Positions 11,357 through 64,000 of a DNA stretch of 64,000 nt are shown here, piece by piece (the stretch's first letter is position 1; every line of letters begins with the position of its first letter). The DNA lies in the NCBI GenBank assembly GCA_964016885.1, contig OZ024746.1:39556001-39620000 (forward strand), read 5' to 3'. Origin of the DNA: Eledone cirrhosa. Its lineage: Eukaryota. The notes under the pieces are model-generated. The model was not told the DNA's origin and did no database searches. It worked only from the letters and a program-made list of their open reading frames with translations. The translations under genes and the position numbers were made by a program.

Positions 11357-11507
11357 CTTTGCAGCAAAGAGTTACGGCCCTTTATGGTCTGAGTTCAAAT
11401 TCCGCCGAGTTTAACTTTGCCTTTCATCCTTACGGGGTCGATAAAATAAAGTACCAGTAATACACTGGAATAATTGCTGGCCTTGTGTCAAAAGTAGAAA
11501 CAATTAT
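11357..11507 (+). mobile_element. SINE family A (5'-truncated)
   Basis: B-box, conserved body and tail. Confidence 0.8.
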
Positions 11508-12249: not shown

Positions 12250-12982
12250 AGATTTGAATGGATACAGTTTAGTTGAAAGGAATTTATTGACACGTGTTTC
12301 TATAACAGTTACATAACCTAAAACAGCTATCTACAAACTTTTAGTTATGCAGACATTCAATATTTCAATGTTATTATTTACTGTCATTTCATCAGAATAA
12401 TATTACTGAGGACCTATTTAGTTTTTATAGAGAATATTAGGAGGGAGGGGTGAAGTTGTTAGAAGAATAGTTGAAGGAGTGGTTTTTCGATAGCAGTGAG
12501 AATTCTTGGTGGCAGTGAGTAATTAGATTCCCATCTGTTGTTTTGACATTTTTTATAGAATATATTATTGGTTATTTTTCTAAATCTATAGAAGGATTAG
12601 AGATAGTAAAGATATGCGTGGTTGGTTTTGTGTTTGCACTTAATTAACATTCAGACTTAAATTTTTCTTTCAAGTGTACGTATCCTTTCACCCACGCATT
12701 CACACACAAATATATTTGCACACCTCTACAAAATACATATACTCACAATTCACATATTCATACTTACATATATATACACATGCATACACATATATATACA
12801 CACATGTATTCATGTACATACATACGCGCTCATGTGTATACATTTTCATACTCAACTTATCTTTATATACACACGTATAGACACACACATATATACATAC
12901 ATACTCTAGTCCATGTGTACACACATACACATACTTACACATCCATATACACATATATACATACATATATACATACACATAC

Positions 12983-13035
<53 letters not shown>

Positions 13036-13864
13036 TACATATATATACACATACACATATATACATATACATATATATATAAGCACTTTAATACATGAAT
13101 ACACTTACATCTAACTATACACATCAAACATATATATATATTTACTTATTTATATACATTTTCACATATATATACATACTTATGGACGTTTTTAGACACA
13201 TTCATTATCGCATATTTGTACCTATTCTCATCAGCATATCTTTTCATTATTAGTATGGTAATTTAAGGTTATTAATATATGTTGAGAAGAGATTGTTTTT
13301 ATATTTTTCTAACTAGATTAAGGTTTATATAGTTGGGGGATGTCCCTCTTTTATGTAATATTCGGCTTGTAGTGGGAAAAAAGGGTTTTAGTTCTGTGAC
13401 GGCAGAATAATGTTCGTTCAATTCTGTTATTCAGCAGTTTCATAATCACACACAAGAAGAAACTGCTGAATAACAGAATTGAACGAACATTATTCTGCCG
13501 TCACAGAACTAAAACCCTTTTTTCCCACTACAAGCCGAATATTACATAAAAGAGGGACATCCCCCAACTATATAAACCTTAATCTAGTTAGAAAAATATA
13601 AAAACAATCTCTTCTCAACATATATTAATAACCTTAAATTACCATACTAATAATGAAAAGATATGCTGATGAGAATAGGTACAAATATGCGATAATGAAT
13701 GTGTCTAAAAACGTCCATAAGTATGTATATATATGTGAAAATGTATATAAATAAGTAAATATATATATATGTTTGATGTGTATAGTTAGATGTAAGTGTA
13801 TTCATGTATTAAAGTGCTTATATATATATGTATATGTATATATGTGTATGTGTATATATATGTA

Positions 13865-13909
<45 letters not shown>

Positions 13910-14755
13910 GTATGTGTATGTATATATGTATGTATATATGTGTATATGGATGTGTAAGTATGTGTATGTGTGTACACATGGACTAGAGTATGTATGTATA
14001 TATGTGTGTGTCTATACGTGTGTATATAAAGATAAGTTGAGTATGAAAATGTATACACATGAGCGCGTATGTATGTACATGAATACATGTGTGTATATAT
14101 ATGTGTATGCATGTGTATATATATGTAAGTATGAATATGTGAATTGTGAGTATATGTATTTTGTAGAGGTGCGCAAATATATTTGTGTGTGAATGCGTGG
14201 GTGAAAGGATACGTACACTTGAAAGAAAAATTTAAGTCTGAATGTTAATTAAGTGCAAACACAAAACCAACCACGCATATCTTTACTATCTCTAATCCTT
14301 CTATAGATTTAGAAAAATAACCAATAATATATTCTATAAAAAATGTCAAAACAACAGATGGGAATCTAATTACTCACTGCCACCAAGAATTCTCACTGCT
14401 ATCGAAAAACCACTCCTTCAACTATTCTTCTAACAACTTCACCCCTCCCTCCTAATATTCTCTATAAAAACTAAATAGGTCCTCAGTAATATTATTCTGA
14501 TGAAATGACAGTAAATAATAACATTGAAATATTGAATGTCTGCATAACTAAAAGTTTGTAGATAGCTGTTTTAGGTTATGTAACTGTTATAGAAACACGT
14601 GTCAATAAATTCCTTTCAACTAAACTGTATCCATTCAAATCTTTCTATTTTTCTCCGGATTACTTTTGGAACTACAACTGGAACCGTCGAGCAAACTCTA
14701 CGTGAGCTGATAATCTACTGTGTGTAATATTTATATTACAACACAACGGAAAATA

Positions 14756-19989: not shown

Positions 19990-20297
19990 ATTGGCAGTAA
20001 AGACAGAGCATGGGGTAACATGCTTTGCAGCATATAGTTACGTCCCTTTACCGAGGTTAGTTTTTGCATTTTATCCTTAGGGGATCGACAAAATAAAATA
20101 CAATTTACGCAATTGTGGGGGTGGGATTTATTCGACTTTCCCCTCCCCCAAAATTGTTGATGTTGTGCTAAATCAGATACCGTAAGGATGAAAGGCGAGG
20201 TTGACTTTGCCTTTCATCCTTACGGGGTCGATAAAATAAAGTACCAGTAATGCACTGGATAATTGCTGGCCTTGTGCCTAAAGAAGAAACAATTATT
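19990..20297 (+). mobile_element. Two SINE family A pieces with a short inverted junction
   Basis: Degraded copy then CGTAAGGATGAAAGGC..GCCTTTCATCCTTACG hairpin and normal 3' end. Confidence 0.7.
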
Positions 20298-20693
20298 TTT
20301 GAAACAATTTATTGAATGCATTACATTAAAGGTAGTTGAAACGGTTTCACCTCTAAATACTGATTTGTGGATCCTTGAAGCATTTTTATTTTATTTTATG
20401 ATATAAAAGTTAAAATCGTTTTTATGTAAAATATCAAATTCGTTTTTGTTTTCGAAACTTAATATTCTTTTATGGCGTCTTTGATTTATTGAATACCTTC
20501 AGCTAGTGGACGGAAGTTGTCGACGCCATTGTTTTTGGCCCATAGGAAATGTTTCTAAAAATATACTAACATTAAACTCTTGCCTGTCTATTTATAGAAC
20601 CATAAGAAGTGAAGTATCAGTCTCACAATTTGCAAGGCGTCTAAAGCGTTGTTCCTTCACTATCACACACGAATACATACCATATATCCACCT

Positions 20694-23944: not shown

Positions 23945-24334
23945 TGTGTGGGTGCATATGAAATGTCTCTGTATATGTGTATTGTTGCGTGTATTGGAAA
24001 GTTCAATGCCTCACAGTCATAGTTAGTTTCATTCACAGTCATAGTTAGTTTCATTCCGCACAGAAATCCTTGGGCTCTCTTTGTGATCTTTTGAAATACA
24101 GGTTTTATTTATATGGTTCAGAAGTATGAGGCGTGTGATTGTTTCTTTGGAAATATGTTTTATTTTTACTAGGTTTTGTTTGTCGCTAGTGAGTGTGAGT
24201 AAATAAGATTTTGGAAGTGTGACTGAGTTGGTCATGTTTGGGTTGGTATCAGAAAAAGTTGGATATCTTTGTCAGTGTGGTAATATATGAATGGGTGTAG
24301 TGAGTGAAATGACGATTAAACAGGCACTTTTATT

Positions 24335-24893
24335 TAGCGGGGGTGAGTTTTTTATTTGGGGGGGAGGTCCGTTTTTATTGGGGGTTCCGTTTTATATTGC
24401 GAGGTCCGTTTTTTATTTGAGGTGGGGGGCTCCGTTTTTTATTGGGGGGGGGGGGCCTTGGGGAGGTCCGTTTTTTATTGGGGGGGGGGGGTTATTTGGG
24501 GGGGGGCGTTTCTTATTTGGGAGGGGGCATATTTTATTAGGGGGTCCGTTTTTTTATTTGGGGGTCGTTTTTTATTGGGGAGGGTTCGTATTTTATTTGG
24601 GGTTCCGTTTTTTATTGGGAGGTCCATTTTTTTTATTTGGGGGGTCCGTCTTTTATTGGGGGGACCATTTTTGAGGGGGGGGGGGGGGGTTATTGGGGGT
24701 CCATTTTTTATTGGGGTGTCCGTTTTTTATTTGGGGAGGGTTCATTTTTTAATGGAGGAGTTCATTTTTTATTGAGCCCCCTCCAAATAAAAAGATGAAC
24801 TCCCCAACATAACAAAACGGCCCCGCCTAATAGAAAATGGATTCCCCCCAATAAAAAAGGACCCCCCCTATAAAAAAAACAGTCCCTCCCCAA
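24335..24893. repeat. G-rich ~20-bp minisatellite with strand switch
   Basis: Units like GGGGGGTCCGTTTTTTATT to ~24775, then reverse-complement units. Confidence 0.85.
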
Positions 24894-25365
24894 TAATATA
24901 TGAATATGTGTAATGTGTGAAATGACGATTAAAGAGGCACCAATATTTGTGAAATTGAGATTTATTAGGGCATAAAAAGCTTATGGTATAGAATTCAAAG
25001 TATATGCACTCACGCGTTTGCACATAAAGACACACTCACATATACACACACACACATACACGCATACACACATATACATATACATACAAGCACACATGCT
25101 CACACACACATAGATACATATATGTATGTATGTGTGTGTACTATGTGCCACCGTAAGCTCATATGTGAGTACATTTGACGTATCAAAAATAATAAATTTA
25201 CCCATTGAAAAACTTCTCATCAATAATCTTTGAGGACCTAAAAGCAAACACGCACAAAACTTTCACATACACATGCGACACGCGCACACACAATCCCACA
25301 TATACACGCATAGTCAAGCACACTTGCGTAACCGACAGAGTGCTAGTTATGTATATAGATAGATA

Positions 25366-25839
25366 TATTTCTTTATTAGCCACAAGGGCGCACAAGAAAA
25401 GGGGACAATACAAAGACATGCCGGGGATTTTACATACAGTCGTGTAAAAAATATAAAAACAAACAACAATCGAAATCCCCAATAGGGGGGAGGCTCCACA
25501 AATGGGTTGTTTAATACCCCGTCGATAGAACAACCCTCAACTCCAGGAGCGTGTTGTGCAAGTGCTCCTTTCTTCCTTTTGCTCTCTTCTTCAACCTACA
25601 GGCTTATAAACAGAGAAGGCCCAATCACTCGGGCCATTTTCGCTTCATTCACCCACCTTTCAGTAAATTTACTGGGATGCAGTGTCTCTCTCTCCACCCT
25701 GATTCTCCTTCTAAAGTGATACTTAAAGAAGGGAATCAATTGTTGTCCGGAGAGAAAGGCATCTGTTCTCAGTTCTCTCAACCTCGTCCACCATATAACT
25801 TCTTTCACCATAGCCACCTACTCTCTTTCGTTTTTGAAA
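25366..25839 (-). mobile_element. Tx1-like copy C, 5'-truncated (ORF2 end + 3'UTR)
   Basis: AMVKEVIWWTRL..GPSLFISL* homologous to A and B; ends GTGGCTAATAAAGAAATA(TATC)2. Confidence 0.9.
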
Positions 25840-26084
25840 GAGATAGATAGATATATTTCTTTATTAGCCACAGGGGCACAAAAGAAGGGGACAAATACAA
25901 AGGTATACAATAAAAACGTGTAAAATGTTATCACAAATGGAATTTAAAAAGTTAGTCGATTTTCCCCAATAGAGGGAGACAGTTTATATGGGTAACACAT
26001 ACCCCCGAAAAAAAATGTGCAACCCTCATCTCCAGGAGTACGAAGAGTTTGTACTCCTTTCCTCTCCTCCTCCTTTTCCTCAAC

Positions 26085-29000
26085 CTACAGGCTGATATAG
26101 AGAGAAGGCCCATTCACTCGGGCCATTCTCGCCACTTTCACCCACCTTTCATAAAACTTGCTGGGGTACAGCACCTCTCTCTCCATCCTGATTCTTCTTC
26201 CAAAGTGGTATTTGAAAAAAAGAATCAGTTGTTGGCCGGAGAGAAAGGTGTCTGACCTCAGCCCTTTCAACCTTGTCCACCATACAACCTCTTTCGCCAT
26301 AGCTATCACACAAAGGAAAACCGCCTCTCCTTCGTTTTTGAAGGAGGGTGGCGGTTTGATCATGACAATGGATTCGGTGGTCAACTGGATTGGTCCCACC
26401 CGCGACAATAGTCGTTCTACATAGCCCCACAGGTCAGTGACGCCAGGGCAGTGTATGAATGCGTGCGCGACGGTTTCTTCGTCTCGCACGCACCTCGGAC
26501 AGATCTTTTTTGCATGGTCCCTGCCCGGGCGCCCATGTCTGTAGAGCTTGTCTCGAACTGGTAGAGCTCCTCGGTAGCACTGCCAGGCCAGGGACTTTTG
26601 GAAGTTGTCCATCGGTCCCGGGCGGAAGGTCCTACCGAACAGACTGGCCAGTTCATCTTCCTCTACGCCTAGAGTTTCACCGAGCGCGTCGTCGCACTTG
26701 CTGCGGACCAACCCTCTATAGAATGACGAAGTGGAGTCTCCACTGATCGCCGGGTCCGCCTGCCAGAGGGCTGTGAGCGCCTGAGCACATTCGATGTGCC
26801 AGTCGCCCATTTTCCTCGGTCTTTGCTTGACCCAGGACTGCAGCTCGGTCAACGAGATGAGTCGTGGGAAGGCTCGCCTCACGAACGGGGCCCACACCGG
26901 TTGTCCGATGAGGAATACGTAGAGATGCCGCAGCCTGAGCACGTGTTTGCGCATCGTCAACCACGGCATCCCCAGCCCTCCGTTAGAAGGGTGTTGGCAG
27001 CAGATGGATCTTCTCACCAAAGGAGCCCGCCTCTTCCAAAGGAATCGGAAGAGCGCGCGCTCCATTTTGGCGAGCGTTTTGGCTGGACAAGGCACGACGG
27101 TCAAGCGGTAGTAGATGGCGGACGCTATAAAAGTGTTCGCCACCTCCGCTCGACCTTTCAAGGATAGTTTGCACTCGGCCCACTTCTGGGTGAGTGCAAA
27201 CACCTTGGCCGTCACTTCGTTCCAGTTCTTCTCCACCTGGAGGTCCGGACCAAACCAGACCCGAGCAGCTTTACCGGTCCAGAGGGATGCCCTGCAATAG
27301 CTCCAGCTTCCGCAGTAGTGGCTCGAGAGTCAGTACGTACAGAAAGGAGGAGAGAGGGCATCCCTGTCGAATGGATCGCGTAATATGGAACGGCTCCGAG
27401 AGGTAGCTGTTCACCTTGACCCTTGAGCAGATGTTGCTGTTGTGCATTGCAGCAATCCAGCCCCTAAACACGGGTCCGAAGCCTGCCGCCTCGAGCACCA
27501 CATCCAGGTAACGATGGTCAACCCTATCGAAAGCCTTAGACTGATCCAAGTTGATCAGGGCCCCACCGAAGCCGGGTTTACACCCTACCCTCTCTATGAT
27601 GTATCGCATGAGGTGGAGGTTGTCGTGTATGGACCTGGTCGGCATTGCGCATGTCTGCGCTTCTCCCACCAGGTTCTCGACGACAAGCGCCAGCCTCTTT
27701 GCCAACACCTTGGCCAAAATCTGTAACTCTGTGTTTAGCAGAGTTATGGGCCGGAAGTTGCCTATGTCATCCCCCTTATTCTCGTCCTTCCTGATTAGTG
27801 TGACCACGCCCCCGGTTACAGAACTGGGAATTCTCCCGTTCTGTTGCCAGTTGCAGTAGATCGCTTCCAGGAGACCGGAGAATAAGTCCGGCATTGCTAC
27901 GTAAAATTCGTAGGGTAGACCGTCGAGACCTGGAGATTTGCGTCTGCCGCATTGGCTCAGCGCGTCCCCTATCTCAGTGGCTGAAATCGGCTTTTCGCAG
28001 AACTTTGCCTCGCTGTCCGAGAGTCGCGGTAGGCCGTCGAGGTATGGACCGAAATCCATAGCCTCTCCCGGCGCGCCGCTCCCCCCCGAACAGCCGAGCA
28101 AAGTGCCGCTGAAAATCCGCACACATCTGCTTCGGCTCACGTATCACGCGTCCGTTTTGGTCCTTCAAAGACCGAATCGTGGACTTGTTGCCACTTTTTG
28201 CCTCCGTCACTCGGGCCCAGCTAACAGCTTTGGCTCCCTCGTTTCCCAGAGCACGTATTTTGCTTCTGACAACGCAGCCCTCGTGCTTTGCGTCGAAGAA
28301 CTGGTCCAAGGCCGTTCTCGTTGCAAGCACGCTGGCTACGTTGCCACTTCTAATTGCCTCTTCTACTTTATCTACCAGTTCCTTCTCGGTTCTATTTCTA
28401 TCTAACGCTAATTCTTTACTAAAAACTATCGAGTCTAATCTAACTGCCCTCTTGAGAGAGTACCACCATCTGTTGTTGACAATGGCCCCTGTCAAGTGCT
28501 GTTTAACTAAAGTGCTAATCCGTCTACTGTAGGCTTTGCTTGTCGGTAACGACAAGTTCAGCTTCCAGTAGCCGGGTCCTTGTCTATGGGTTCTATCAAG
28601 GTTGGCCATGCAGGTCACTAGTTTGTGATCTGAATAGGCAACCATGAACATTTGTGGACAGCTTAACATGTCCCTATCCTTATTTCTAACTAGAACCCTA
28701 TCTAGGTACGATCTAGATGTTCCGCTACGATTACTCCACGTTCACAGTGGCGCAGTCGGAAAATCTAGTCGATATCTATCGGCCAGGTCAAATCGGTCGA
28801 TTAACTGTTTGAGGCTGTTACACCCCCCTTTATCGGGACATGCTCCCACATAGTCCCAACGTGCATCTAGGATTCCATTCCAGTCCCCCACTAAAAGCAA
28901 GGAGCGGGACGTTCCCAGAAAAGCCTCTAGACGTTTGAAGAAGTCTGGCCGCGGTGTCCCGGATGGGGCATATGCGGCCACCAGCCTGAAGGCTCCACCT

Positions 29001-29305
29001 TCACTACCGTCAACGTCTAGGACCACCAGTCGACCCTCCGGGCCCAGATGTACCGTCTGTGTTACGAGGCCCAGGTGTTTCCGCAGCAAAACGGCAACTC
29101 CGCCCCCACCCCCCGGTTGACAGAGAGATGCGTAGATCTCAAAGTCATCGAAGATGGGGGCCAGCTGTCGCTCGCCGTGGATCCTGGACTCGCAAATGGC
29201 TACCACATCCATACTGTGCGACCTGAGGTCGTTTAAAAGTTTTCCCTGTTTCCAGGGCATCCCCAGGCCGCGTACGTTCACACATCCAACTCTTATATTC
29301 GCCAT
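26085..29305 (-). pseudogene. Copy B ORF2 (APE endonuclease-RT-CCHC), disrupted
   Basis: Trp>TGA at ~28742, frameshift near G-run ~28085, ~216-bp deletion at ~27275 removing YADD relative to copy A. Confidence 0.9.
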
Positions 29306-29338
29306 GTTGGTGCTGAAAAGTTAAAAGAGGAAAAGAGA

Positions 29339-31234
29339 TCACTCACCCTTCGCCTCTTGGGGACCAGGCCGCACGATTTCCATGGGGGTGTTGGAGGGGT
29401 TGTCTGGATGGGTGGTGGTTTCCGGCGGGGTGGGGACGCAGATGTTTGGTGGGGTGGGGTCTGGTGGGATGGGGGTGTCTGGGGTGGGGAGGCATTTGAG
29501 AAGGACGCGGTTGAGTGGTTTCACGCAGGAATTACCCACATCCTTCTCAAATGTTTCTTTTAGGGACCTATAAGTTTGTATAGGGACCCTAATCAGTTTT
29601 AGGTTCAGTTTTTTGCTATTTTTAATAGAGTGGGCGAAAGTTTTCCCTGCGGTGAAAACCGAAGGGTCGTTCGTGATGGTCTCCATTAGTCTTTTGTTTT
29701 CAGTGTTTATGTAAGTGTAAGTGTAATTTTCTTGTGTTGTGTTTGTTTTTGTCTGTAGTTCTTGTGTGTGCTTTCGTTTTGTTGTAGGTATTTTGTTTTC
29801 AGGAGGTGGGGGTTTTGTTTGTGATATTTTTGTTGTTTGTGTTGGTGGTTGTATGTTTGTGGTAGTGTTTGCTGGTTTTTTGCTTTTGTGATGTCTTTTC
29901 TTTCTTTTCGAGCGATGGGGTTCTCCCTCGTCTTCACTGGGTGATGGCGAGATAGCCTCATCTGTTGTATCGTCTGTGTGATTGGGGAGGGGTATGTCTT
30001 GGGGAGCTGTTGTGTCTGTATGTGATTTTGCAGTGGTTTTAGGTGGAGTGGGGTTGGGTGGGACTGTGTTTGTTGTGGTTATTTTTGTGTGTTGGTGTTG
30101 TTGTTGTTGTGGTGGTGTTGGTGGTTGCGTTGTTTTGATGGGTGTCGGCAGAAGAGCCTTTTTTTGGTTCATTAGTTTAGGACAGGAAGCCCTCAGGTGA
30201 CCCCTGCTAAAGCAATGGTAACATGAAGGCCGCCTACCCTCAACCGAAAGGTTTATGTAGGTGAGTCCGTCCAGGAGTACACGCTGTGGGATCATAGCTA
30301 TTCGCTCTGGGCTCATTTGCACCAGAACTTCAATGCTAGTCCCATTGAATACATCTCTGGGGGACTTTCCTACTGACAGTATTCTGTCTTCATCAAAATT
30401 GATGAAGCCGCACAGTATCCACCATATGTTCACCTTTGGTGTGACACTTGTGATTCTGATCTTTTGTGTCCTTTTTCCCATGTATGTAGGGAAAAGGGTG
30501 TACAGGTTGGATACAATTGGCGACACAGAGTAATTTTGGGCCGTCAATTGATCCTTCATGAGTACCGAAATACTCCCAAAAAGTTTGCTTCTTTGAATGA
30601 ATGCAATATCATTCATTGAATTTTTGAAAACCAGTCCAATTTCTTTCTGTGACAATTGGACTGGTTTTCGGGTAGAATTGGAAACTGTCCTAAAAACTAT
30701 CGTTTTGAGAGCAGTTTCCTTGCGAATTTCTACCGGAGAATTGATGCTGAAAGCACCATTTTTTTCGAAAGTGACATATCTCTTAGCGTCCTTTAAAAGT
30801 TGTTCAGCATTTGTTATGTCGAGATATATCAATTCTTCTTTCTTTTGAACTTTCTCTGCAAAGGAGATTTTTGGTTTCTTCGTGGAATCCGTATTGGTGG
30901 TGTTGTCATTATTGTTGTTATTCTTGTTGTTATTCTTGTTGTCACCGATGTTGGTATCATCCGTATTTTCCTTGGTGTTGTTGTTGGCGTTATCTTTATT
31001 TTTTTCTTTGTTGTTGTTATCATTGTTGCTTTTATCATCATTATTGGTTTTGCTGTTATTTTTGTTGTCATTGAACTGTTTGGTGTCATTTGTGTTGTTT
31101 GGATATGAATTCGTTTTTTTATTTTCATTTTGTCTTTCCATCTCTATAGTATCTAGTGAAGAAGACGTTGTTGACTGCGAGCTTTGTAGTCTTACCGCCT
31201 CTCCACCACCATTATCGTTGGACGCAGTGTTCAT
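29339..31234 (-). CDS. Copy B ORF1 (nucleic-acid-binding, gag-like zinc knuckle)
   Basis: CYHCFSRGHLRASC (CX2CX4HX4C), Asn-rich N-terminus, Pro/Thr/Gln-rich tail, KRKKR; first ATG at 31234. Confidence 0.88.
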   Translation of the reverse strand: MNTASNDNGGGEAVRLQSSQSTTSSSLDTIEMERQNENKKTNSYPNNTNDTKQFNDNKNNSKTNNDDKSNNDNNNKEKNKDNANNNTKENTDDTNIGDNKNNNKNNNNNDNTTNTDSTKKPKISFAEKVQKKEELIYLDITNAEQLLKDAKRYVTFEKNGAFSINSPVEIRKETALKTIVFRTVSNSTRKPVQLSQKEIGLVFKNSMNDIAFIQRSKLFGSISVLMKDQLTAQNYSVSPIVSNLYTLFPTYMGKRTQKIRITSVTPKVNIWWILCGFINFDEDRILSVGKSPRDVFNGTSIEVLVQMSPERIAMIPQRVLLDGLTYINLSVEGRRPSCYHCFSRGHLRASCPKLMNQKKALLPTPIKTTQPPTPPQQQQHQHTKITTTNTVPPNPTPPKTTAKSHTDTTAPQDIPLPNHTDDTTDEAISPSPSEDEGEPHRSKRKKRHHKSKKPANTTTNIQPPTQTTKISQTKPPPPENKIPTTKRKHTQELQTKTNTTQENYTYTYINTENKRLMETITNDPSVFTAGKTFAHSIKNSKKLNLKLIRVPIQTYRSLKETFEKDVGNSCVKPLNRVLLKCLPTPDTPIPPDPTPPNICVPTPPETTTHPDNPSNTPMEIVRPGPQEAKGE

Positions 31235-31452
31235 AACGTAATCAAAATTTTTACAATATTTTTCCAAGATTCGATGGAGAAAATGCTTTTAAATGGATAT
31301 TCCGCCCCTGTAGGGGGCGAAAATGAGTTGACCCACCACCTGAAGGTCCAGACGGGTGGTCAAGTTACACAATGATATAAAATTTAACTAAAAACTCACG
31401 TTTTTTTCTGACATAAATTAACGGAAACTTCTCCGCGAAGTGACACACGTCT

Positions 31453-31488
31453 GATAGAGAGATAGATAGATAGATAGATAGATAGATA
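31453..31488. repeat. (GATA)n spacer between copy A 3' end and copy B 5' end
   Basis: Direct reading. Confidence 0.95.
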
Positions 31489-31752
31489 AGTTTCTTTTAT
31501 TTGCCACTAGGGCATCAAAAGTGGGACAAGTACAAAGGGGGGAGTTTACACAAAAAGGCGTCCTCAATAAGGAGGAGGCAATAACAAAATATAAAAATAA
31601 AATAAGATATAACAAAAAATAAAATTTTTAACAAAATCCTCAATAGAGAGGAGGCGCCTTGGGGGGTCGCACACACCCCCGAAAAAAGTGTGCAACCCTT
31701 TTCCTCAGGAGCACAGAGAGGGGGTGCTCCCTCGTTCCTTCCTCTTTTCCAC

Positions 31753-34700
31753 CTACAGGCTTATGTAAAGAGAAGGCCCATTCACACGGGCCATTCTCGC
31801 CACTTTCACCCACCTTTCATAAAAACGACTGGGGTGCAGCACCTCTCTCTCCATCCTGATCCTTCTTCCGAAATGATATCGGAAGAAACGGACCAGTTGT
31901 TGGCCAGAGAGAAAGGCGCCCGACCTCAGTCCTTTCAGACGCGTCCACCATACAACCTCTTTCGCCATGGCTATTACGCACAGAAACACCGCCTCTGCTT
32001 CATCTTTGAAGGGGGGAGGCGGCTTGATCATTACAATAGACTCGGTGGTCAACCGGATCGGTCCCACCCTTGACAGCAGTTGTTCGACATAGCCCCACAG
32101 ATCGGCTACGCCCGAGCAGTGTACCAATGCGTGTGCAACGGTTTCCTCGTCGCACACGCATCTGGGACAGATCTTTTTGGCGGGGTCCCTACCCGGGCGC
32201 CCGTGTCTGTAGAGCCTTTCTCGAACGGGTAAAGCCCCTCGGTAGCACTGCCAGGCCAGGGACTTCTGGAAGTTGTCCATAGGTCCCGGGCTGAATGTCC
32301 TACCGAACAGGCTGGCCAGTTCGTCCTCCTCCATGTCTAGGGCTTCTCCGAGGGCGTCGTCGCACCTGCTGCGTACCAGCCCTCTATAGAATGTTGCGGT
32401 GGAGTCTCCACTGATAACCGGATCCGCCTGCCAGAGGGCGGTGAGCGCCTGGGCACACTCAGTGTGCCAGGCGCCCAGTTTTCTCGGTCTCTGCTTGACC
32501 CAGGATTGTAGTTCGGTGAGTGAGACGAGTCTGGGAAAGGTTCGTCTCACAAACGGGGCCCACACCGGTTGTCTGGTGAGGAATACGTAGAGGTGCCGTA
32601 GCCTTAATGCGTGTTTACGCATCATTAGCCACGGCATCCCCAGCCCTCCTTTCGAAGGGTGTTGACAGCAGATGGATCTCCTCACCATAGGAGCCCGCCC
32701 CTTCCAAAGGAATTGGAAGAGCGCGCGCTCCATCTTGGTGAGGGTTTCCCTTGGGCAGGGCACTACGGTCAGGCGGTAGTAGATGACGGACGCTATATAA
32801 GTGTTCGCCACCTCCGCCCGACCTTTCAGGGATAGTTTGCAACTGGCCCACTTCTGGGTCAGTGCAAACACCCTGTTCGTAACCTCCGCCCAGTTTTTCT
32901 CCACCTGGAGGTCCGGTCCGAACCAGACCCCGAGCAACTTCACCGGGCCCTCCGTCCAGCGTCCGACGACGCCATCGGAGGGCATCGGTCTGCCCCTCCA
33001 CGTGCCGAGTTGCAAACCGATCGACTTGTCCCGGTTCAGCTTAGCCCCTGTGAACTTTTCGTACTCCTCCAGTAAGGTGCCGACCGCCTCGATTTCGGAG
33101 GCCGTCGACACCATTACTGTCACATCATCGGCGTAGGCTGACACCGCTTTCCGCAATCCCGGTTCCAAAGGGATGCCCTGCAACAACTCCAACTTCCGCA
33201 GTAGTGGCTCGAGAGTCAACACATACAGAAGGGAGGAGAGAGGGCACCCTTGTCGGATGGACCGCGCGATTTTGAACGGCTCCGAGAGGTAGCCGTTCAC
33301 CTTGACCCTAGAGCAGATGCGGCTGCTGTGCATAGCAGTGATCCAGCCCCTGAAAACGGGTCCGAAGCCTGCCGCCGCTAGCACCGCATCCAGGTAACCA
33401 TGGTCGACCCTATCGAACGCCTTAGATTGATCCAAGTTGATCAGAGCCCCACCAAAGCCGGGTTCGTTCCCAACCCTCTCTATGATGTATCGCATGAGGT
33501 GGAGGTTGTCATGGATGGACCTGGACGGGATAGCGCATGTCTGCGCATCTCCCACCAGGTTGCCCACGACAAGCGCCAACCTCTTTGCTAGCACCTTGGC
33601 CAAAATCTGTAACTCTGTATTTAGCAGAGTTATGGGCCTGAAGTTACTTATTTCGTCCCCCTTGTTCTCGTCCTTCCTCACTAGCGTGACTACGCCCTTG
33701 GTCACAGTACAGGGAATTCTCCCGTTCTGTTGCCAGTTGCAGTAGACCGCCTCGAGGAGATCGGGGAACAAGTCCGGCATAGCTAGATATAATTCGTAAG
33801 GAAGACCATCGAGACCCGGGGATTTGCGTTTGCCGCATTGGCCCAGCACGTCCTCTATCTCAGCGGCCGAAATCGGCTCCTCGCAAGACTTCGCCTCCCT
33901 GTCCGAGAGGCGCGGCAGGCCGTCGAGGTATGGACCGAAGTCCACGTTTCCAACCGGCTCCCCGCCCCTCCCGAACAGTCGGGCAAAGTGCCTTTGAAAG
34001 GCCTCACACATCTGCTTAGGCTCAAGAATCGCCCGTCCATCCAGGTCTCGCAAAGACCGGATGGTGGATTTAGTTCCACTGTTGGCCTCTGTCACGCGGG
34101 CCCAGCTAACAGCTTTGGCCCCCTCGTTCCCTAGAGCACGTATTTTACTTCGGACAACGCAGCCTTCGTGCTTCGCGTCGAAAAACTGGCTCAAAGCCGT
34201 TCTCGACGCTAGCACTCTGGCCACGTCGCCGCTTCTAATTGCCTCTTCTACTCTATCTATTAGCTCCCTTTCCTTCCTATTCCTATCCGCAGCTAGAACC
34301 TTACTAAATTCAATCGAGACTACTCTAATCTCTCTCTTTAGAGATACCCACCACCTGCTGTTGACGATCGCTCCAGTCAACCGTTCCTTAACTAACGTAC
34401 TAATCCGATTCCTGTAGGCTCTACTTGCCGGCAAGGACAAGTTGAGCTTCCAGTAACCGGGGCCCTGTCTATGCGTTCTATCAAGGTTGACCATGCAGGT
34501 CACCAACTTGTGGTCTGAATAGCCAACCATGAGCATTTCTGGACAACTTAAAAAGTCCCTGTCCTTATTTCTAACTAAAAATCTATCTAGGTACGATCTA
34601 GATGATCCGCTGCGATTTGACCAAGACCAGGTTGGCACCGTCGGAAAATCTAGTCGAAATCTATCGGCCAGGTCAAATCGGCCGAGTAACCCCTTGAGGC

Positions 34701-35190
34701 TGTTGCACCCCTCTCTATCGGGACATGCCCCTGCATAGTCCCAACGTGCATCCAGGATACCATTCCAATCCCCCACTAAAAGCAGGGAACGGGACGTCCC
34801 TAGAAAAGACTCCAGACGCTGGAAAAAGTCGGGCCGCTCTGTCCCAAAAGGGGCATATGCGGCTATCAGCCTAAAGGCTCTACCTTCACCACTGCCAAGG
34901 TCCAGCACCACCAGTCGACCCCCTGGGTCCAAGTGAACTATCTGTGTTGCAAGGCCCATATGTTTTTGCAGCAGAACGACAACCCCACCCCCACCTCCGG
35001 GCTGACAGAGAGATGCGTGCATCTCAAAGTCGTCAAAGGTGGGGGCTAGCTGTCGCATGCTGCTGATCCGGGCCTCGCAGATAACCATCACATTTATAGA
35101 TTGTGACCTGAGGTCATTTAGAAGCATTGCTTGCTTCCAAGACGAGCCCAGGCCACGCGCATTTAGACACCCTACTCTTAGCACAGCCAT
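31753..35190 (-). CDS. Copy A ORF2: APE endonuclease, reverse transcriptase, C-terminal CCHC (1145 aa from ATG)
   Basis: CLNARGL, GDWN, YLDRFLV, SDHK; PGLDG, FRPITLLN, KAFDRV, QGCPLS, YADD; GGLG; CPRC..ETVAHALVHC. Confidence 0.95.
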   Translation of the reverse strand: MAVLRVGCLNARGLGSSWKQAMLLNDLRSQSINVMVICEARISSMRQLAPTFDDFEMHASLCQPGGGGGVVVLLQKHMGLATQIVHLDPGGRLVVLDLGSGEGRAFRLIAAYAPFGTERPDFFQRLESFLGTSRSLLLVGDWNGILDARWDYAGACPDREGCNSLKGLLGRFDLADRFRLDFPTVPTWSWSNRSGSSRSYLDRFLVRNKDRDFLSCPEMLMVGYSDHKLVTCMVNLDRTHRQGPGYWKLNLSLPASRAYRNRISTLVKERLTGAIVNSRWWVSLKREIRVVSIEFSKVLAADRNRKERELIDRVEEAIRSGDVARVLASRTALSQFFDAKHEGCVVRSKIRALGNEGAKAVSWARVTEANSGTKSTIRSLRDLDGRAILEPKQMCEAFQRHFARLFGRGGEPVGNVDFGPYLDGLPRLSDREAKSCEEPISAAEIEDVLGQCGKRKSPGLDGLPYELYLAMPDLFPDLLEAVYCNWQQNGRIPCTVTKGVVTLVRKDENKGDEISNFRPITLLNTELQILAKVLAKRLALVVGNLVGDAQTCAIPSRSIHDNLHLMRYIIERVGNEPGFGGALINLDQSKAFDRVDHGYLDAVLAAAGFGPVFRGWITAMHSSRICSRVKVNGYLSEPFKIARSIRQGCPLSSLLYVLTLEPLLRKLELLQGIPLEPGLRKAVSAYADDVTVMVSTASEIEAVGTLLEEYEKFTGAKLNRDKSIGLQLGTWRGRPMPSDGVVGRWTEGPVKLLGVWFGPDLQVEKNWAEVTNRVFALTQKWASCKLSLKGRAEVANTYIASVIYYRLTVVPCPRETLTKMERALFQFLWKGRAPMVRRSICCQHPSKGGLGMPWLMMRKHALRLRHLYVFLTRQPVWAPFVRRTFPRLVSLTELQSWVKQRPRKLGAWHTECAQALTALWQADPVISGDSTATFYRGLVRSRCDDALGEALDMEEDELASLFGRTFSPGPMDNFQKSLAWQCYRGALPVRERLYRHGRPGRDPAKKICPRCVCDEETVAHALVHCSGVADLWGYVEQLLSRVGPIRLTTESIVMIKPPPPFKDEAEAVFLCVIAMAKEVVWWTRLKGLRSGAFLSGQQLVRFFRYHFGRRIRMEREVLHPSRFYERWVKVARMARVNGPSLYISL

Positions 35191-35214
35191 GTTGGTGGTA
35201 AAGAGAAAAGGCAC

Positions 35215-36857
35215 TTACCTCTCTGCGTCCCGGGAAACGGGCCGCTCAATTTCCATGCTGGTTGGGGATGGGTTGTTGGGTGGGGTTGTGGTTTGTGGAA
35301 GTGAAGGGGCATCGGTGTGTTGTGGGGTTGGGGTGTTTGTCGTTGAGTGGGTGTCTGGGTGAGGTGGGGGGGTGAAATTTTTTAGGAGGACGCGGTTGAT
35401 TGGTTTGGCGCAGGGGGGGCCCACGTCCTCCGTGAAATTTATTTTCAGTGTTTTGTACAAGTGCATTGGGACTTTTATCATTTTCAAATGAGGTAGTCCC
35501 ACAGCAGTTATAAAGTTTGGCCCTTCGGTTTGGACCGAAGGGTTTGCTGAAATTGTTTTCCGTAATTCTTTGTTGTCTGTGTTCATGTATGTGTATTGTA
35601 ATGTCTTTTTTTGTGTAGCAGTTAGTGTTGTGTGACAGGGAGGGGTGGTTTGTGTGTAGTTTGTGTTCTCTTGGGGGGGATTAAAGTTAACATGTGTGTC
35701 TGTGGTGCGTCTCCTCTTCTTTCTTTTTACTTGTTGGAAGGGATCTTTTTCGTCTTGCGACGAAAGAGGTTCGTCTTCCTTGTTGGGTGGGAGGGGTATG
35801 TTTTCTGGTAGTGTTTGCGGTGTGCGTGTTTTTGTATTTGTTTTGGGTGGGGAGGGATTGGGTGGGACAGTATTCTGTGTTATTTTTTCACGTGTTTGTT
35901 GTTGTTGTTGTTGTGGTGGTGGTGGTGGGGTTGTTGGTTTTTGTTGTTGTTGTGGTTGTTTTTGTTGTTGTAGTTGGGGTGGTGTTGGTGTTGGTAGCAG
36001 TGTTTTTTTCTGTGTGAGCTGGGGACAGGCAGCCCTCAGGTGACCTCTATTGCCACAGAGGTAACAGGAGGGACGCCTACCCTCCACAATAATGTTGAGG
36101 TGGGTACGGTCATCCAGCATGACGCGCTCAGGGATTTGGGCGATGCGTTCTGGCCTTATTTGGGTCAGAACTTCGATGCTCGTTCCACTGAACGCGTCGC
36201 CGGATGCCTTCCCTATTGAGATGAGGTTGTCCTCGTCTAAATTGAGGAAACCGGTTAGTAACCACCAGTAGTTTATGTTTGGGGTGATGGTGGTTATCCA
36301 TATCCTCTGGGTTTTTTTACCCATGTAGGTAGGGAAGAAGGTGTAGTGTGTGGACCGAATTGGCGACACAGAGTATTTTTTTGCCGCCAATTCGTCTTTC
36401 ATCAATATGGATAAACTCCCATAGAGTTTATCCTTTTGTATGAAAGTGATGTCTCTCATCGCGTCTTTCAAGACTAACTGAGTTTCCGCTTGAGATGGTT
36501 GCGCTGGTTTCTTTGTTTTATTTAAAATTGTTCGGAATACGACAGTTCGTAATTCCGTCTGTCTTTTTAGCTCCGGAGGTGAATGTATAGAAAACGATCC
36601 GTTTTCGCCAAAAGACACATATTTCTTGGCTTTTTCCAGCATTTCTTTTGCTTTTGAAATATCTTCCAGCACATAAGCGACTGATAATTTAGCCGTTTGT
36701 GCAAAAGATATTTTGTTTTCGTTTTGGATATTAGTATTGTTTTGTTTCTCGTCGTTTGAGTTGTTTTCATCTTTGTTGTTGTTGTTGTCTTTCTCGTTTC
36801 GTGTGTGGATACTTGTGACGTTTGTGTTGTTGTTGTTTTTGTTGTCTTTATTGTTGC

Positions 36858-36888
<31 letters not shown>

Positions 36889-37065
36889 GTTTTCAAATTC
36901 TTGTGTAGTTGTGGTTACATCTAGTGGTCGGTCAACAGGTGAAGACAATTCTTCCTCTCTCTGACCTCTGCCTTTGGCATCTGCTGCTGTGACAGTGGCA
37001 GGGGGAAGCTGTGAGTATGACTTCCCCTTTCCTTCTTTGATTGATGGTGAAGATGATTCAGCCAT
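35215..37065 (-). CDS. Copy A ORF1 (zinc-knuckle protein)
   Basis: CYLCGNRGHLRAAC; core alignable with copy B ORF1; KRKKRRR; ATG at 37065. Confidence 0.9.
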
Positions 37066-37323
37066 TTTTCTCAAAATAGGGTTTTTCGAAGTTTTTCGAA
37101 AGATAAAATGTTCACAATACTATTTCGCCCAAAGGCGCAGAATATTTTGAGAGACCGACCAGATCAAAATTTGACCTGGCAGTCCCTCTACAAAATGATA
37201 CAAAAATGAAAGTTTACAGTTTACAATTTCCGTATGAATTTAAACAAAAACTTACCGAGCGAGCTCAGCACATGTGTCCATCAGATAGATATAGATAGAT
37301 AGATAGATAGATAGATATAACAT

Positions 37324-37627
37324 AACTGGCACTCCTTCAGTTACGACGACGAGTGTTAAAGTTGATAAGATCGTAAAATAAACGCTCAAGTGAGCATTCC
37401 ACAGACACGTACTTTTAATATAGTTCTTAGGAAGATTCAGCGTAGATTCTTAGGAAGATTCAAATTTCACAGAATGTGAAAAATCTGGCCCTTCGAATTA
37501 CAGGCGCAACCCAATTTTGCTAGCTGTGTGGACTGGAGCAATGTGAAATAAAGTGTCAAGGACACAACGCACCACGGGGAATCGAACTCACGTCCTTACG
37601 AATATTCTAACAACAAATCTAAGCGCC
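37324..37627 (-). mobile_element. tRNA-derived SINE (family B-like)
   Basis: Minus: GAGTTCGATTCCCC B-box, TTGTGTCCTTGAC..TTCACATTGCTCCAGTCCAC body. Confidence 0.6.
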
Positions 37628-37630
37628 TTT

Positions 37631-37714
<84 letters not shown>

Positions 37715-37721
37715 TGTGTGT

Positions 37722-38400
37722 ATATTAGGATGCATTCAATTTCAAACTCCTTCGAGGTGATATCCAGTTTGACCGAATGTCAGGCTATTTACCCAATAGC
37801 CGTAATAGGGGATTGTTCCTAAGACACGTGAAGAAATCTGACTACACTGTCCGAATCGGAATATAAACGCTACTAGTCCGAAGGCATGGATTTCGTTTCA
37901 GTTTATAATCAGGACCACGGACATACCAACCAGCTCCAGGAAAATCGTTCGTTTTTCGAGAACCAGCTTTTTCCAAAATAACTTTTCCCTTTTACTCGAT
38001 CCGGCCGATCGAAAGATGTGTTTACTTTATAGTCGTTGAAAAGTATAAGTCACTAGGTACAGAAATTCTTGGCCTGTCCGATGACCAACTCATAAATATG
38101 AAATAAACTGACGTTGTAAAATTAGTGAATTTGCTTCCAGGTTAACTCTAGGCCAGGTTATTTTTGACGGGGAAAAGCAAGCGAGATCATTTTCCGCGGC
38201 CTGGAAATCCGAACTTCTTGACGGGGTCCTTGACTAGCCTCTCAAAATATTTCTTCACTGCTATCTTTCGAAACATGTTAACGTCTTATAGAAATATTTT
38301 CCCTGAGACTTTTAGTTTTCATCAGAGGTCTATGACACCGTCTTTGTAGAACAAACTGCTTCAAACCCTCCTACATAGTATTTTGACGCAGTCCCTAAGT
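37722..38400. mobile_element. Possible DNA-transposon remnant
   Basis: Imperfect inverted ends TTAGGATGCATTCAA / TTGACGCAGTCCCTAA; no ORF recognised. Confidence 0.25.
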
Positions 38401-39334
38401 TGTTTCGCACTGTAAGAAAGAGAGGTTTATTGTGTTGTGGTGTTGTTGTTGTTGGTGGTGGTGGTGGGATTGCTGTGCTAATCATCCTTTTGTTTTGTTG
38501 CTGTTTTTATGTTTTTTTAAATGTTTATTTTTATGTTTTTTGATTGTTGTTATTGCTTTTATGTGTTTTCCTATTGTTTTTGTTCTTTTTTATTTTCGTT
38601 GTTGCTTTTTATGTTTTTATTGAGGTTGTATTTATATTTATGGTTATGATGGTTGAGGGTGTTGTTATTGTTGCTACTGCTGTTTTTGATGTTTTGGTTG
38701 CTGCTGCTGCTGCTGTTGCTGCTACATACGGTTATGATGGCCGTGACAGCAATTATATGGTTACTGGAGGTGGAGGTGTTATTTATTGAGAACACCAATC
38801 TTTGCTGCCATTTTTTTTTTATGCTATCGTGACTACCACCATCTTAAACATCACTAATGTTAGTGTTGCTGGTAACGATAATGATGGTGGTGATGGTGGT
38901 GGTGGTGGTGGTGGTGGTGGTGGAATTGCCTGTCGTAACGTCATTGTTTCTGCTACAGCCTGTTAGAATGAGAGAAGAGAAAATCGCATGATCCTCTCCC
39001 CTTTCTGTTGTTTTACTGAAAGCGAGTTACTGACTTTGTATCTTCACCTTCCTATTGCGGTTTGCTCTTCCTTTACTCTCTTTGTCGTTTGTATAAACAG
39101 CAGATGTCATATGAAAATAAATATACACGTAATTCTTCAAATGATCATTTTTTCCAAGATTGAAAATCGAAAGTGTGGCCCAAATAAGTGCCGAAATATT
39201 AGACAACCAACGAACTGCATTCTTGGTTAGATCTGTAACAAGACAGAGCATATTAAAGGGAATAAAGGGCAATATAATAATTTCACAGAGCGCTACCAAT
39301 TCATAACTCACCGTTCAGCTATAATAATTATTTT

Positions 39335-39430
39335 TATTTCTTTATTGGCCACTAGGTCCGAAACATAAAGGACAATACATAGGGACAGTGGGTATTTACA
39401 TAAAAGTGCAGAGAAATAATTTGGGGACAT
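39335..39430 (-). mobile_element. Tx1-like 3' tail remnant
   Basis: Minus ..TTGTCCTTT..CTAGTGGCCAATAAAGAAATA resembles 3' ends of copies A-C. Confidence 0.5.
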
Positions 39431-40079
39431 AATCAGTCGTAACATAAACGCTAACACTATTGATGTAGTGAGCAAAATATTGGCTATGGCCTAATCAGTA
39501 TATGATCAAACCTTCCATCATTAACATCTGTTTATCTTCCTGGTTGTGGTTTTTAATGCTATCGATAAAACATGATAGTAGATTATAGCAATGATTAAAT
39601 AAATATGAAATAATAGAATCGTTAAGAATAACTAAACAAATACAGTTGATTTAAAACAAAAATGGGGTTCTAAAGAAGTGAAGTGAAGGATTTTGCCCAA
39701 GGACAATATCACGACTTCAGTACAATATAAATGCTTGATTCACAAGTTTATAAACTCGATCATTTTACTTCTCAATAAGTGTTGCTTTTTGGTGCAAGTT
39801 AATGTTGTTTATCTTCAGGTCAGACCTGAATCAATAGACCTATAACCAAATATCTCGGAGTTGTCACCGATAGATTGTATCAGCAATGGAGAGTCCATTG
39901 GAAACATTGTTTCCTTGTTCCGATTTGACGAGTTCCACCCCACTCGGTAATCGAATGAATGAAGTCTGGTATTGTGTCGATCGAACACTATCTACATTAT
40001 TTAATGTGACCTGACTTATTTAAGAGGACAAGATTCAATTTGAGCGATGTTTGGTTGTTATTTATTAATAAAATGGTAG

Positions 40080-40465
40080 ATAATTGTTTCTACTTTAGGC
40101 ACAAGGCCAGCAATTACCCAGTGCATTACTGGTACTTTATTTTATCGACTCCGTAAGGATGAAAGGCAAAGTCAACCTCGGCGGGATTTGAACTCAGATC
40201 GTAAAGGGACGTAACTATGCTGGAAAGCATGGCGTCCGATCCTCTACTGATACTGCAAATCCACTGCTGGTAGATAATTGTTTCTAATTTAGGCACAAGG
40301 CCAGCAATCACCCAGTGCATTACTGGTACTTTATTTTATCGACCCCGTAAGGATGAAAGGCAAAGTTAACCTTGACGGGATTTGAACTCAGACTGTAAAG
40401 GGACGTAACTATGCTGGAAAGCATGGCGTCCGACTCTCTACCGATACTGCCAATCCCCCGCCCTA
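40080..40465 (-). mobile_element. Tandem pair of SINE family A
   Basis: Head-to-tail copies at 40080-40265 and 40273-40465. Confidence 0.85.
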
Positions 40466-41615
40466 ACTGGTAGATAATGTTGGGCAAAAAGTATGCTTCT
40501 GGTAAACCGAGAACCCGATCCAATTCCAACGACAGTTGAAGTAATTTGATGCTATTGGCTACGTTGATACTATCGATAAAAGATAAGGATGCAACACGTT
40601 AGATCTCTATACTTCCAGCATACAGATCCTTTGTGCGCATTCTAAAATAAATCAATTGAAATTAAAGAAACTTTCTTGTGTAGACATGAAGCAGAGAATT
40701 TTAGAGAGAAGCAAACTGGAAATTATAATGTTCATTTTTTCCCACTAATAAAGTATTAGAAGAATAAATTAAGTGAAAAAATTCATATCATTAATTGAAA
40801 CTAGTTTGTGCACTACGTTTACCGGAAATTTCACTTTACGGCATCCGGCAGCACTAATGAGGAGTGTAAGATTGTGTGATACCCATGTTTTATGAAAGGT
40901 ATTAGGGAGATAAGTGAAATAATATGGTCTCAAATAAAACTATATAAAAACAAATTTGACATCATGTTGCTTCTACTTTTTCTCCTCAAACTTAGACTGG
41001 AAAAACAACTAAAATAATATATACTGCAGTGATTGTAACAGCACAAGCAGACAACACATAAGCCTACACAGTTATCGTTCTTGAAATTCTCACTTCTGCC
41101 GCCTCTCTTTGTTATACGTTGTTCGCAACTTCTCAGTATAAGCTGGCCTGTGTAAATCAACGTTATGTAGAATATCCATGAGGCCATATATGGCCAGCGT
41201 TTACCCCCAGCCATCTACTTGTTCTACTGGGTGCCTGGTATTCAAATGTAATCCGAGAAAACATGCTGTCGGTCTATTTGAGAACTCGTAAAGAATGTGC
41301 GGGTACTTTTTTCTTTTTCTTTTTCATCTTACGACTTACTGCTTCACTGCTGCTGATGCTACTGCTAGTACTGCACAGGAAACTATAACAAAACAAGAAA
41401 GTGAGAGAAAATAGATAGATAAATAGATAGATAGATAATAAGTAAATAAATATATAAATAAATAAATAACGGCTATGGTTAGTAACCTAGATGCTTGCAT
41501 GTGTTTAAGAACCGTAAATATTTCTCCGTCTATAGAAACCACCTCCACACTTGTAAGTATATTGAGGTAACTTGTTATTGGAGAATATGATATATACATA
41601 TATACATACATATTT

Positions 41616-49124: not shown

Positions 49125-49700
49125 AGAGCGATGGATTAACAGAATCGTTAGAGCGCCGGACAAAATGCTTCAAAGTATTTGGTTACGGCTCATTACATTC
49201 TGAGTTCAAATCTGTCGAGAGTAACTTTGCCTCTTATCCTTCTAAGATCGATAAACTGAAGTAACAATACTGTTGTCGACTTAATCTGCTTCCCACTACC
49301 GCCAAAATCACTTCTAGCTTTGTGCCTAAATTAGATACCATTATTCCCTTTACGATCTGAGTTCAAATCCCGCCGAGGTTGACTTTGCCTTTCATCCTTA
49401 CGGGGTCGATAAAATAAAGTACCAGTAATGTACTGGGAAATTGCTGGCCTTGTGCCTAAAGTAGAAACAATTATTAAAGCAGGGCGGTGAATTGGCAGTA
49501 TCGGTAGAGGATTGGACGGCATGCTTTCTAGCATAGTTACTTCCCTTTACAGTCTGAGTTCAGATCCCGCCGAGGCTAACTTTGCCTTTCATCCTTACGG
49601 GGTCGATAAAATAAAGTACCAGTAGTGCACTGGGGTCGATATAATCGGCCTTCACCTCACCCCAAATTGCTGGCCTTATGCCTATAGTAGAAATCGTAAT
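49125..49700 (+). mobile_element. Three consecutive SINE family A copies
   Basis: Diverged copy, truncated copy and full copy GGGCGGTGAATTGGCAGTATCGGTAG.. from 49482. Confidence 0.85.
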
Positions 49701-63668: not shown

Positions 63669-63811
63669 GCACACAGATTAATAGACACTACTGGACAGCC
63701 TTTGGCACTCCTGAGTTCCTGAGTGCATCCGTTCTTTGACAGGTTTTATTTATATTCCCCAAGGGTGTCTAAAAGTCACCCGCATCACTATGCATACATA
63801 TCCACAACGAT

Positions 63812-63828
63812 CTATCTATCTTTCTATC

Positions 63829-63901
<73 letters not shown>

Positions 63902-63958
63902 CCTAACCTATCTATCTATCTATCTATCTATCTACCTATCTATCTATCTATCTATCTA
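63812..63958. repeat. (TATC)n microsatellite, unoccupied
   Basis: Direct reading. Confidence 0.95.
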
Positions 63959-64000
63959 TTTTATTTTTTGTTATATTTTATTTTATTTTTATATATTGTT

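Follow-up and report, generated by a model that had tools for sequence, protein, structure and literature searches.

Tx1-like retrotransposons stacked in (GATA)n microsatellites of Eledone cirrhosa point to a repeat-specific insertion preference

We analysed a 64,000-nt stretch of the Eledone cirrhosa genome (assembly GCA_964016885.1, contig OZ024746.1, positions 39,556,001 to 39,620,000; hereafter the window, with positions counted from its first base). Three copies of one family of apurinic/apyrimidinic endonuclease (APE)-type retrotransposons, designated A, B and C, lie head to tail on its minus strand, each bordered by arrays of the microsatellite (TATC)n, or (GATA)n on the forward strand. 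The stack and its flanks, in the direction in which the elements read, comprise the following features.

37318..37630, minus strand: short interspersed nuclear element (SINE)-like host repeat with a B-box-like motif near 37587; its 3' end adjoins the array at the 5' junction of copy A
37284..37317, minus strand: 5' junction of copy A, a once-interrupted (TATC)n array of ~8 units
31489..37283, minus strand: copy A, full length, 5795 nt, both open reading frames (ORFs) open
37066..37283, minus strand: 5' untranslated region (UTR) of copy A, with a long hairpin and then a short CGCC/GGCG hairpin (folding z -4.6)
35215..37065, minus strand: ORF1 of copy A, 616 aa, with an Asn-rich N-terminus, a conserved core ending in one CCHC zinc knuckle, and a Pro/Gln/Thr-rich tail
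31753..35190, minus strand: ORF2 of copy A, 1145 aa, with APE endonuclease, reverse transcriptase (RT; YADD) and C-terminal CCHC
31489..31752, minus strand: 3'UTR of copy A, carrying AATAAA at 31501-31496, conserved hairpins and a T-rich linker flanked by a duplicated hairpin
31453..31488, minus strand: (TATC)n array separating A (3' end) from B (5' end), with 7 perfect units plus TCTCTATC
25854..31452, minus strand: copy B, full length
31234-29339, minus strand: ORF1 of copy B, open
29305-26085, minus strand: ORF2 of copy B, disrupted by three lesions: nonsense codon at ~28742, 1-nt insertion at ~28081 (within a C-run) and ~218-nt deletion at ~27270
25842..25853, minus strand: (TATC)3 (GATAx3), separating B (3' end) from C (truncated 5' end)
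25366..25841, minus strand: copy C, 476 nt, 5'-truncated
25358..25365, minus strand: (TATC)2 (GATAx2), running into TATATAC; 3' junction of C
25327..25352, plus strand: 26-nt piece of the 3' end of the same SINE-like repeat in opposite orientation (22/26; BLAST E=0.016)

All four stack junctions consist of in-phase (TATC)n, with the phase held constant at 5' and 3' junctions alike. Read in element sense, copy A ends in AATAAAAGAAACT and copies B and C in AATAAAGAAATA, in each case followed directly by TATC, and poly(A) is missing from all three of these on-target 3' junctions: the gap from AATAAA to TATC spans 6 nt in B and C and 7 nt in A, with no A-run. The full-length 5' ends of A and B begin directly after TATC (that of A possibly one base later), whilst the truncated 5' end of C joins the repeat as TATC followed by TCTTTC. 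On the forward strand the array between A and B reads GATAGAGA and then seven GATA units, with one TCTC interruption at the 5' junction of B. A preliminary description made from the sequence alone had reported the four arrays, the common orientation, and AATAAA within about 8 nt of TATC without poly(A), all of which we recovered. It had also counted three stacked elements; A and B are full length, C is a truncated remnant, and a fourth copy, D, was overlooked.

Since the stack is flanked by opposed 3' ends of the SINE-like host repeat, the empty site was most likely a TA/TATC microsatellite lying between them. The SINE label for 37318-37630 is in part our assumption; the next best match to the 26-nt piece in the window is 16/26. 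Inverted copies of one repeat end (25327-25352 and 37318-37345) border the stack, so the empty site would have been a short palindrome around the microsatellite.

The three copies are well separated in sequence. Between A and B, identity falls from 83.7 % in ORF2 (2696/3220 nt) to 60.5 % in ORF1 (1085/1794) and 46 % in the 5'UTR (97/210). Copy C, which consists of the last 80 codons of ORF2 (with one stop and one 15-nt deletion) and the 3'UTR, matches the ORF2 tail of B at 202/246 positions (82 %) and that of A at 189/246 (77 %). Over 1070 ORF2 codons, A and B differ by a synonymous divergence (dS) of 0.58 and a nonsynonymous divergence (dN) of 0.094, a dN/dS of 0.16 that reflects purifying selection. 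This ratio, together with the divergence itself, indicates that A and B diverged as active lineages and were inserted separately rather than arising as a decaying duplicate; tandem duplication as the source of the stack is therefore rejected, as the preliminary description had supposed from divergence. More broadly, we judged it very unlikely that the stack arose by tandem duplication, tail recombination, 3' transduction or mis-assembly across the GATA runs. Every junction does fall within a simple repeat, and the 1-nt insertion in B sits in a homopolymer, as is typical of sequencing error. Such origins fit poorly, however, with copies 77-85 % identical at that dN/dS, with arrays of 8-36 nt that reads can span in a window free of N, and with A and B keeping distinct full 5' ends; they also leave D unexplained, and a transduced stack would still require repeated insertion somewhere. 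Taking lesion load as a crude clock, the copies were probably inserted in the order C, B, A, each younger copy sitting 5' of the older one and not in its tail.

A second on-target locus lies 26 kb from the stack.

63810..63959, plus strand: (TATC)n array of 150 nt, longer than any other in the window and immediately 5' of copy D
63958..64000, plus strand: copy D, 5'-truncated and A-like, 41/43 identical to the T-rich linker of the A 3'UTR

Copy D is visible for 43 nt, its 3' junction lying beyond the end of the window at 64000. It joins its array through a 2-nt AT microhomology, and its orientation relative to the repeat is that of the stack copies. Because the D sequence is low in complexity, the match was set against 5000 dinucleotide shuffles, none of which scored above 35/43 against A, B and C; elsewhere in the window the best match to D was 30/43. 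Detection of D was by BLAST only, as it lacks the terminal 75 nt on which our 3' profile was built. A profile search found no family 3' end ahead of the D array, indicating that this array is not the tail of another copy. The preliminary description had proposed scoring 5' flanks as a check on (GATA)n targeting, and D, beginning right after a separate array, provides one such flank in its favour.

A further relative of the family, remnant R, lies between these two loci.

39335..39404, minus strand: remnant R, the last 70 nt of a related element, sharing 60-68 % identity with A, B and C

A profile built on the terminal 75 nt identifies R as a genuine relative (E=1.1e-6); at E<0.5, this terminal profile found no family ends in the window other than those of A, B, C and R. 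R ends in AATAAAGAAATA and then continues with AAAATAATT. It retains the conserved 3' end as far as GAAATA but lacks TATC, showing that this end terminates ahead of the repeat. R may be an off-target, poly(A)-primed insertion, or may belong to a sister family with another target.

Across the window, (TATC)n is present at the 5' junction of four of the five family copies, the orientation is the same in all four on-target copies, and seven of the nine visible family ends touch GATA/TATC, involving five distinct arrays at two loci. The control comprised 33 other repeat intervals, among them simple repeats and copies of a 160-nt interspersed repeat; of their 65 ends, none touched two units of GATA/TATC. 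Even when the junction arrays count as background, 8 nt of TATC repeat precede 222 of 104158 strand-specific host positions (0.2 %); D and R, the two copies outside the stack, would give one or more such hits with a probability of 0.004. GATA/TATC accounts for 271 of the 4458 bases of perfect 2-4-nt microsatellite in the window, so a general preference for microsatellites would give about 6 %; in addition, all five runs of at least five perfect GATA/TATC units belong to arrays touching a family copy. PMC4494074 regards a non-LTR (long terminal repeat) family as target-specific when one sequence type occurs in more than 20 % of flanks; here the proportion is four of five copies, for this window only and at two loci. 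The association is real and non-random, and a (GATA)n preference is well supported locally, on two loci. The targeting proposed in the preliminary description is thus strengthened by D and by the control.

These counts also bear on a simpler explanation, namely that (TATC)n is an element-encoded tail and that the copies inserted without target preference or built up passively in a repeat-rich region. In its favour, R lies off target, microsatellites are abundant in the window (4458 of 52087 host bases), and Drosophila Waldo-A/B are reported to have built up passively near CA repeats (PMC3812793). The arrays 5' of A and of D nevertheless have no preceding family 3' end, and they carry particular weight because the element's own tail cannot supply (TATC)n at that side. 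Neither the constant orientation of the on-target copies, nor the absence of the repeat from all 65 other ends, nor the tail-less conserved end of R agrees with an encoded tail, and we consider this explanation very unlikely. LINEs (long interspersed nuclear elements) with an encoded microsatellite tail, of the CR1, L2 or RTE type, carry the repeat at the 3' end only, whereas in this family it stands at the 5' junction of most copies and R has an end without it.

The gene content places the family among APE-type elements of the L1 group: ORF2 combines an N-terminal APE endonuclease, an RT and a C-terminal CCHC, and the elements have two ORFs and no LTRs, with C, D and R representing 3' fragments that share the 3' end. 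ORF2 of copy A follows in the frame of ORF1, 8 codons past its stop. Pfam matches comprised Exo_endo_phos, RVT_1 and zf-RVT (the last under its cut-off), and the best PDB match was L1 ORF2p (E=3e-48, residues 13-865). The endonuclease keeps N10, E39, Y112, D141, N143, D202 and S225-D226-H227, which are invariant or nearly so among 30 aligned relatives, and its predicted structure (pLDDT 94.8) best matched the L1 endonuclease (TM 0.85, Z 29.3, rmsd 2.4, 229 aligned). Its target-probing hairpin loop reads SNRSGSSR in A and SNRSGTSR in B and is different in the three relatives aligning there; this near-identity lends weak support to target specificity residing in the endonuclease. With catalytic motifs kept and both ORFs open, copy A is intact at the level of its sequence, in line with its earlier characterization as competent-looking.

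ORF1 is less readily classified. A zf-CCHC match was obtained in A (E=0.0012) and B (E=0.083), both under the curated cut-off, and Pfam searches did not find Transposase_22 in ORF1 of either copy. Atlas leads pointed to zf-CCHC and RRM/ZCCHC3-type clusters (0.89-0.92), the RRM indication (0.89-0.90) being taken as a lead alone. No ORF1 homologue was found among 899 candidates, and a structure model built from the two-sequence alignment had a pLDDT of 29. A CCHC knuckle without Transposase_22 fits, but does not prove, the Type I ORF1 (RRM plus zf-CCHC) that has been linked with Tx1 (PMC5203782). The A/B family lacks both the Transposase_22 ORF1 and the poly(A) tail of vertebrate-type L1 elements.

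An RT tree was built by a quick method with SH-aLRT (Shimodaira-Hasegawa-like approximate likelihood ratio test) support, 77 of 83 input proteins being kept (4 were too short and 2 without hit). In this tree A, the B fragment and protein P0004 formed a clade (support 100) within a long-branched clade of 23 rows (100) that included two proteins of the cuttlefish Acanthosepion pharaonis, the nearest named relatives at 47-52 % identity over the RT region. Although the tree contains no named Tx1 or L1 reference, membership of the Tx1 clade is likely on these features, and the family behaves like a target-specific Tx1.

Both UTRs of copy A contain predicted structure. The 5'UTR hairpin pair is position-matched in B despite 46 % identity (B z -2.2); these shared hairpins, at 37120-37195 in A and 31300-31375 in B on the minus strand, have no Rfam match. 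RNAalifold across the three 3'UTRs, too small a set to establish a structure, yielded 42 pairs, 10 with two-sided change, and the duplicated hairpin (GCCTCCTC...TATTGAGGA twice) at 31560-31660 (minus strand) in A is absent from B and C. An Rfam search over 24000-40000 returned 13 matches, all below the gathering score, with no ribozyme or known RNA in either UTR; ARAGORN found no tRNA, and neither A nor B has terminal direct repeats. Each full-length copy carries exactly two donor-like GTRAGT motifs on the sense strand, located in the 5'UTR and at the ORF1 stop respectively (minus strand, 37255 and 35218 in A; 31399 and 29346 in B); antisense counts of 2 and 4 indicate no overall enrichment. 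Copy B also has a pyrimidine tract and CAG directly ahead of the ORF2 ATG. Splicing to an ORF1-ORF2 fusion was considered and dropped, as joining the B donor to the acceptor-like site is out of frame and A has no AG there.

Taken together, we consider it likely that an APE-type L1-group (Tx1-like) lineage has (TATC)n/(GATA)n microsatellites as its preferred target and enters them in a single orientation by target-primed reverse transcription. Transcription would start from the element's own 5' end, ORF2 would be translated after the ORF1 stop, and its product (ORF2p) would bind the structured 3'UTR. The endonuclease would then nick the (GATA)n strand, most simply between units (GATA/GATA), a position suggested by TATC starting all three on-target 3' junctions and preceding both full-length 5' ends. 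The nicked end would prime reverse transcription at the element 3' end, probably aided by pairing with read-through UAUC units, which would account for the missing poly(A), and truncated copies would join the repeat via short microhomology. With repeat left on both sides, later elements could enter the same array, giving the probable order C, B, A. By precedent, the endonuclease would be the default determinant of specificity: the Tx1L endonuclease nicks almost exclusively its own site (PMC1950540), and swapping the endonuclease domain between SART1 and TRAS1 switches the target (PMC7265360).

The same junctions can be read with the RNA in the deciding role, such that the transcript ends in (UAUC)n, whether encoded or gained by read-through, and a relaxed endonuclease nicks widely, but only nicks in (GATA)n pair and prime. 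Poly(A) is absent from all three on-target 3' ends and AATAAA lies 6-7 nt ahead of the repeat, so that a transcript cleaved at the usual distance past this signal would carry some repeat. For the L1 endonuclease, moreover, flexibility of the hairpin loop mattered more than its sequence (PMC1950540). We nevertheless regard a pairing-driven process as unlikely, though not negligibly so, given that 5' and 3' junctions keep one and the same phase, that R shows a conserved end stopping at GAAATA, and that the SART1/TRAS1 swaps and Tx1L nicking cited above point to the endonuclease. A more specific proposal, that a cephalopod Tx1-like lineage gained (GATA)n specificity independently of the fish elements Kibi and Koshi, with the site chosen largely via the RNA, whose read-through beyond AAUAAA into the surrounding repeat would pair with the nicked target in place of poly(A), is in our view unlikely. 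Were the RNA to choose the site, a copy would inherit its target from its own insertion site, and an altered 3' repeat would redirect an intact L1-group enzyme.

Several observations weigh against endonuclease-directed insertion into (GATA)n, or limit how far it can be taken. The on-target loci in the window number two, and the stack itself prompted the finding. Copy D amounts to 43 nt of T-rich sequence with its 3' end beyond the window, and R is without TATC at both ends (one of five copies, two of nine visible ends), as the preliminary description had recognized in naming it a counter-example. Three 3-unit GATA/TATC arrays (16659, 41426 and 51996) are empty, whilst the two leftmost arrays of the stack are just 2 and 3 units long. 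The two SINE-like ends flanking the stack stood outside the 65-end control, yet they adjoin an array. Target-site duplications are unreadable within a repeat, and the sequence of the window cannot separate endonuclease specificity from RNA-DNA pairing.

Two further suggestions in the preliminary description went beyond what the locus supports. That the family regenerates its own target is not a separate claim, because whatever inserts into a microsatellite will have repeat on either side of it; nor does it find separate support, given that R shares the 3' end without TATC and that younger copies lie 5' of older ones. Use of copy A as a site-specific insertion tool was overstated, as GATA arrays are dispersed and numerous; any such tool would be repeat-specific rather than directed to a single site.

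Elsewhere in the window, two consecutive open frames at 57359-59026 (plus strand) contain an RT-like stretch (DVVSLYPSI, SRYVDG) and a GIY-YIG-like end. They gave no Pfam match under E=0.25 and a weak match to intron endonuclease 1mk0 (E=0.28); going by these motifs, we take them to be a probable broken Penelope-like element. A 19-bp G-rich satellite (GGGGGTCCGTTTTTTATTGG-like) occupies 24339-24890, its orientation flipping near 24780. The 160-nt interspersed repeat is present in more than 10 copies, 87-98 % identical and some in tandem, at sites including 6840-7010, 7315-7495, 11354-11518, 20196-20307, 40077-40478, 49345-49693 and 52325-52851. Palindromic segments were noted at 666-790 (86 %), 1467-1756 (92 %) and 12739-14153 (mirrored tandem-repeat rows).

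Microsatellite-specific APE elements are an established class, including Kibi for (TC)n, Koshi for (TTC)n, crocodilian Tx1 elements for (TTCC)n/(TTTC)n, Waldo and Mino (PMC4494074, PMC3812793), though the mechanism by which such elements target microsatellites was called not well understood in a 2013 review (PMC3812793). Stacking itself is not new: SINEU-3 (PMC4494074) and Utopia (PMC4640811) are described as inserting in tandem, one after another, at a single target. The present family would extend this short list by one repeat unit and probably by one phylum. With copy A intact and close relatives bearing different endonuclease loops, both the gain of the target and the contribution of the RNA end become directly testable. 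The family also bears on the use of GATA microsatellite markers and on repeat annotation in cephalopod genomes.

Kibi and Koshi, of teleost fish and the Tx1 clade, are likewise APE-type and specific to a microsatellite, but the host here is a cephalopod and the junction repeats are (TATC)n rather than the (TC)n, (TTC)n, (TTTC)n or (TTCC)n of that lineage; the likeness seen here is one of target behaviour. The crocodilian elements Tx1-1_Crp, Tx1-2_AMi and others share a four-base target, (TATC)n differing from (TTTC)n by one base per unit (PMC4494074), yet they are old reptile copies, whereas the present family has an intact copy and a repeat that includes a purine. SART1 and TRAS1 (telomeric repeats), Waldo (ACAY)n and Mino (AC)n are also orientation-specific APE elements of short repeats; they belong to a different clade, R1, and SART1, which requires at least 3 repeat units (PMC7265360), ends in poly(A), unlike the copies described here. 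Human LINE-1, the closest solved structure, shares the endonuclease fold, the two ORFs and 5' truncation, but differs in its Transposase_22 ORF1, its poly(A), its weak TTAAAA preference and an endonuclease only ~20 % identical to that of copy A. Octopus L1-Tx1 elements, with 13 recently active families and 421 insertions in Octopus vulgaris (PMC13282606, Table 1), are likely the same element class if the host is taken as an octopus; the available text of that paper reports no target preference. No report of a (TATC)n/(GATA)n target was found in the literature searched, which did not take in Repbase, subscription journals or the known Tx1 targets listed in Fig. 3 and supplements of PMC4494074. 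In sum, the family is best described as a variant, directed at (GATA)n, of an established type of element, and its target repeat appears to be new.

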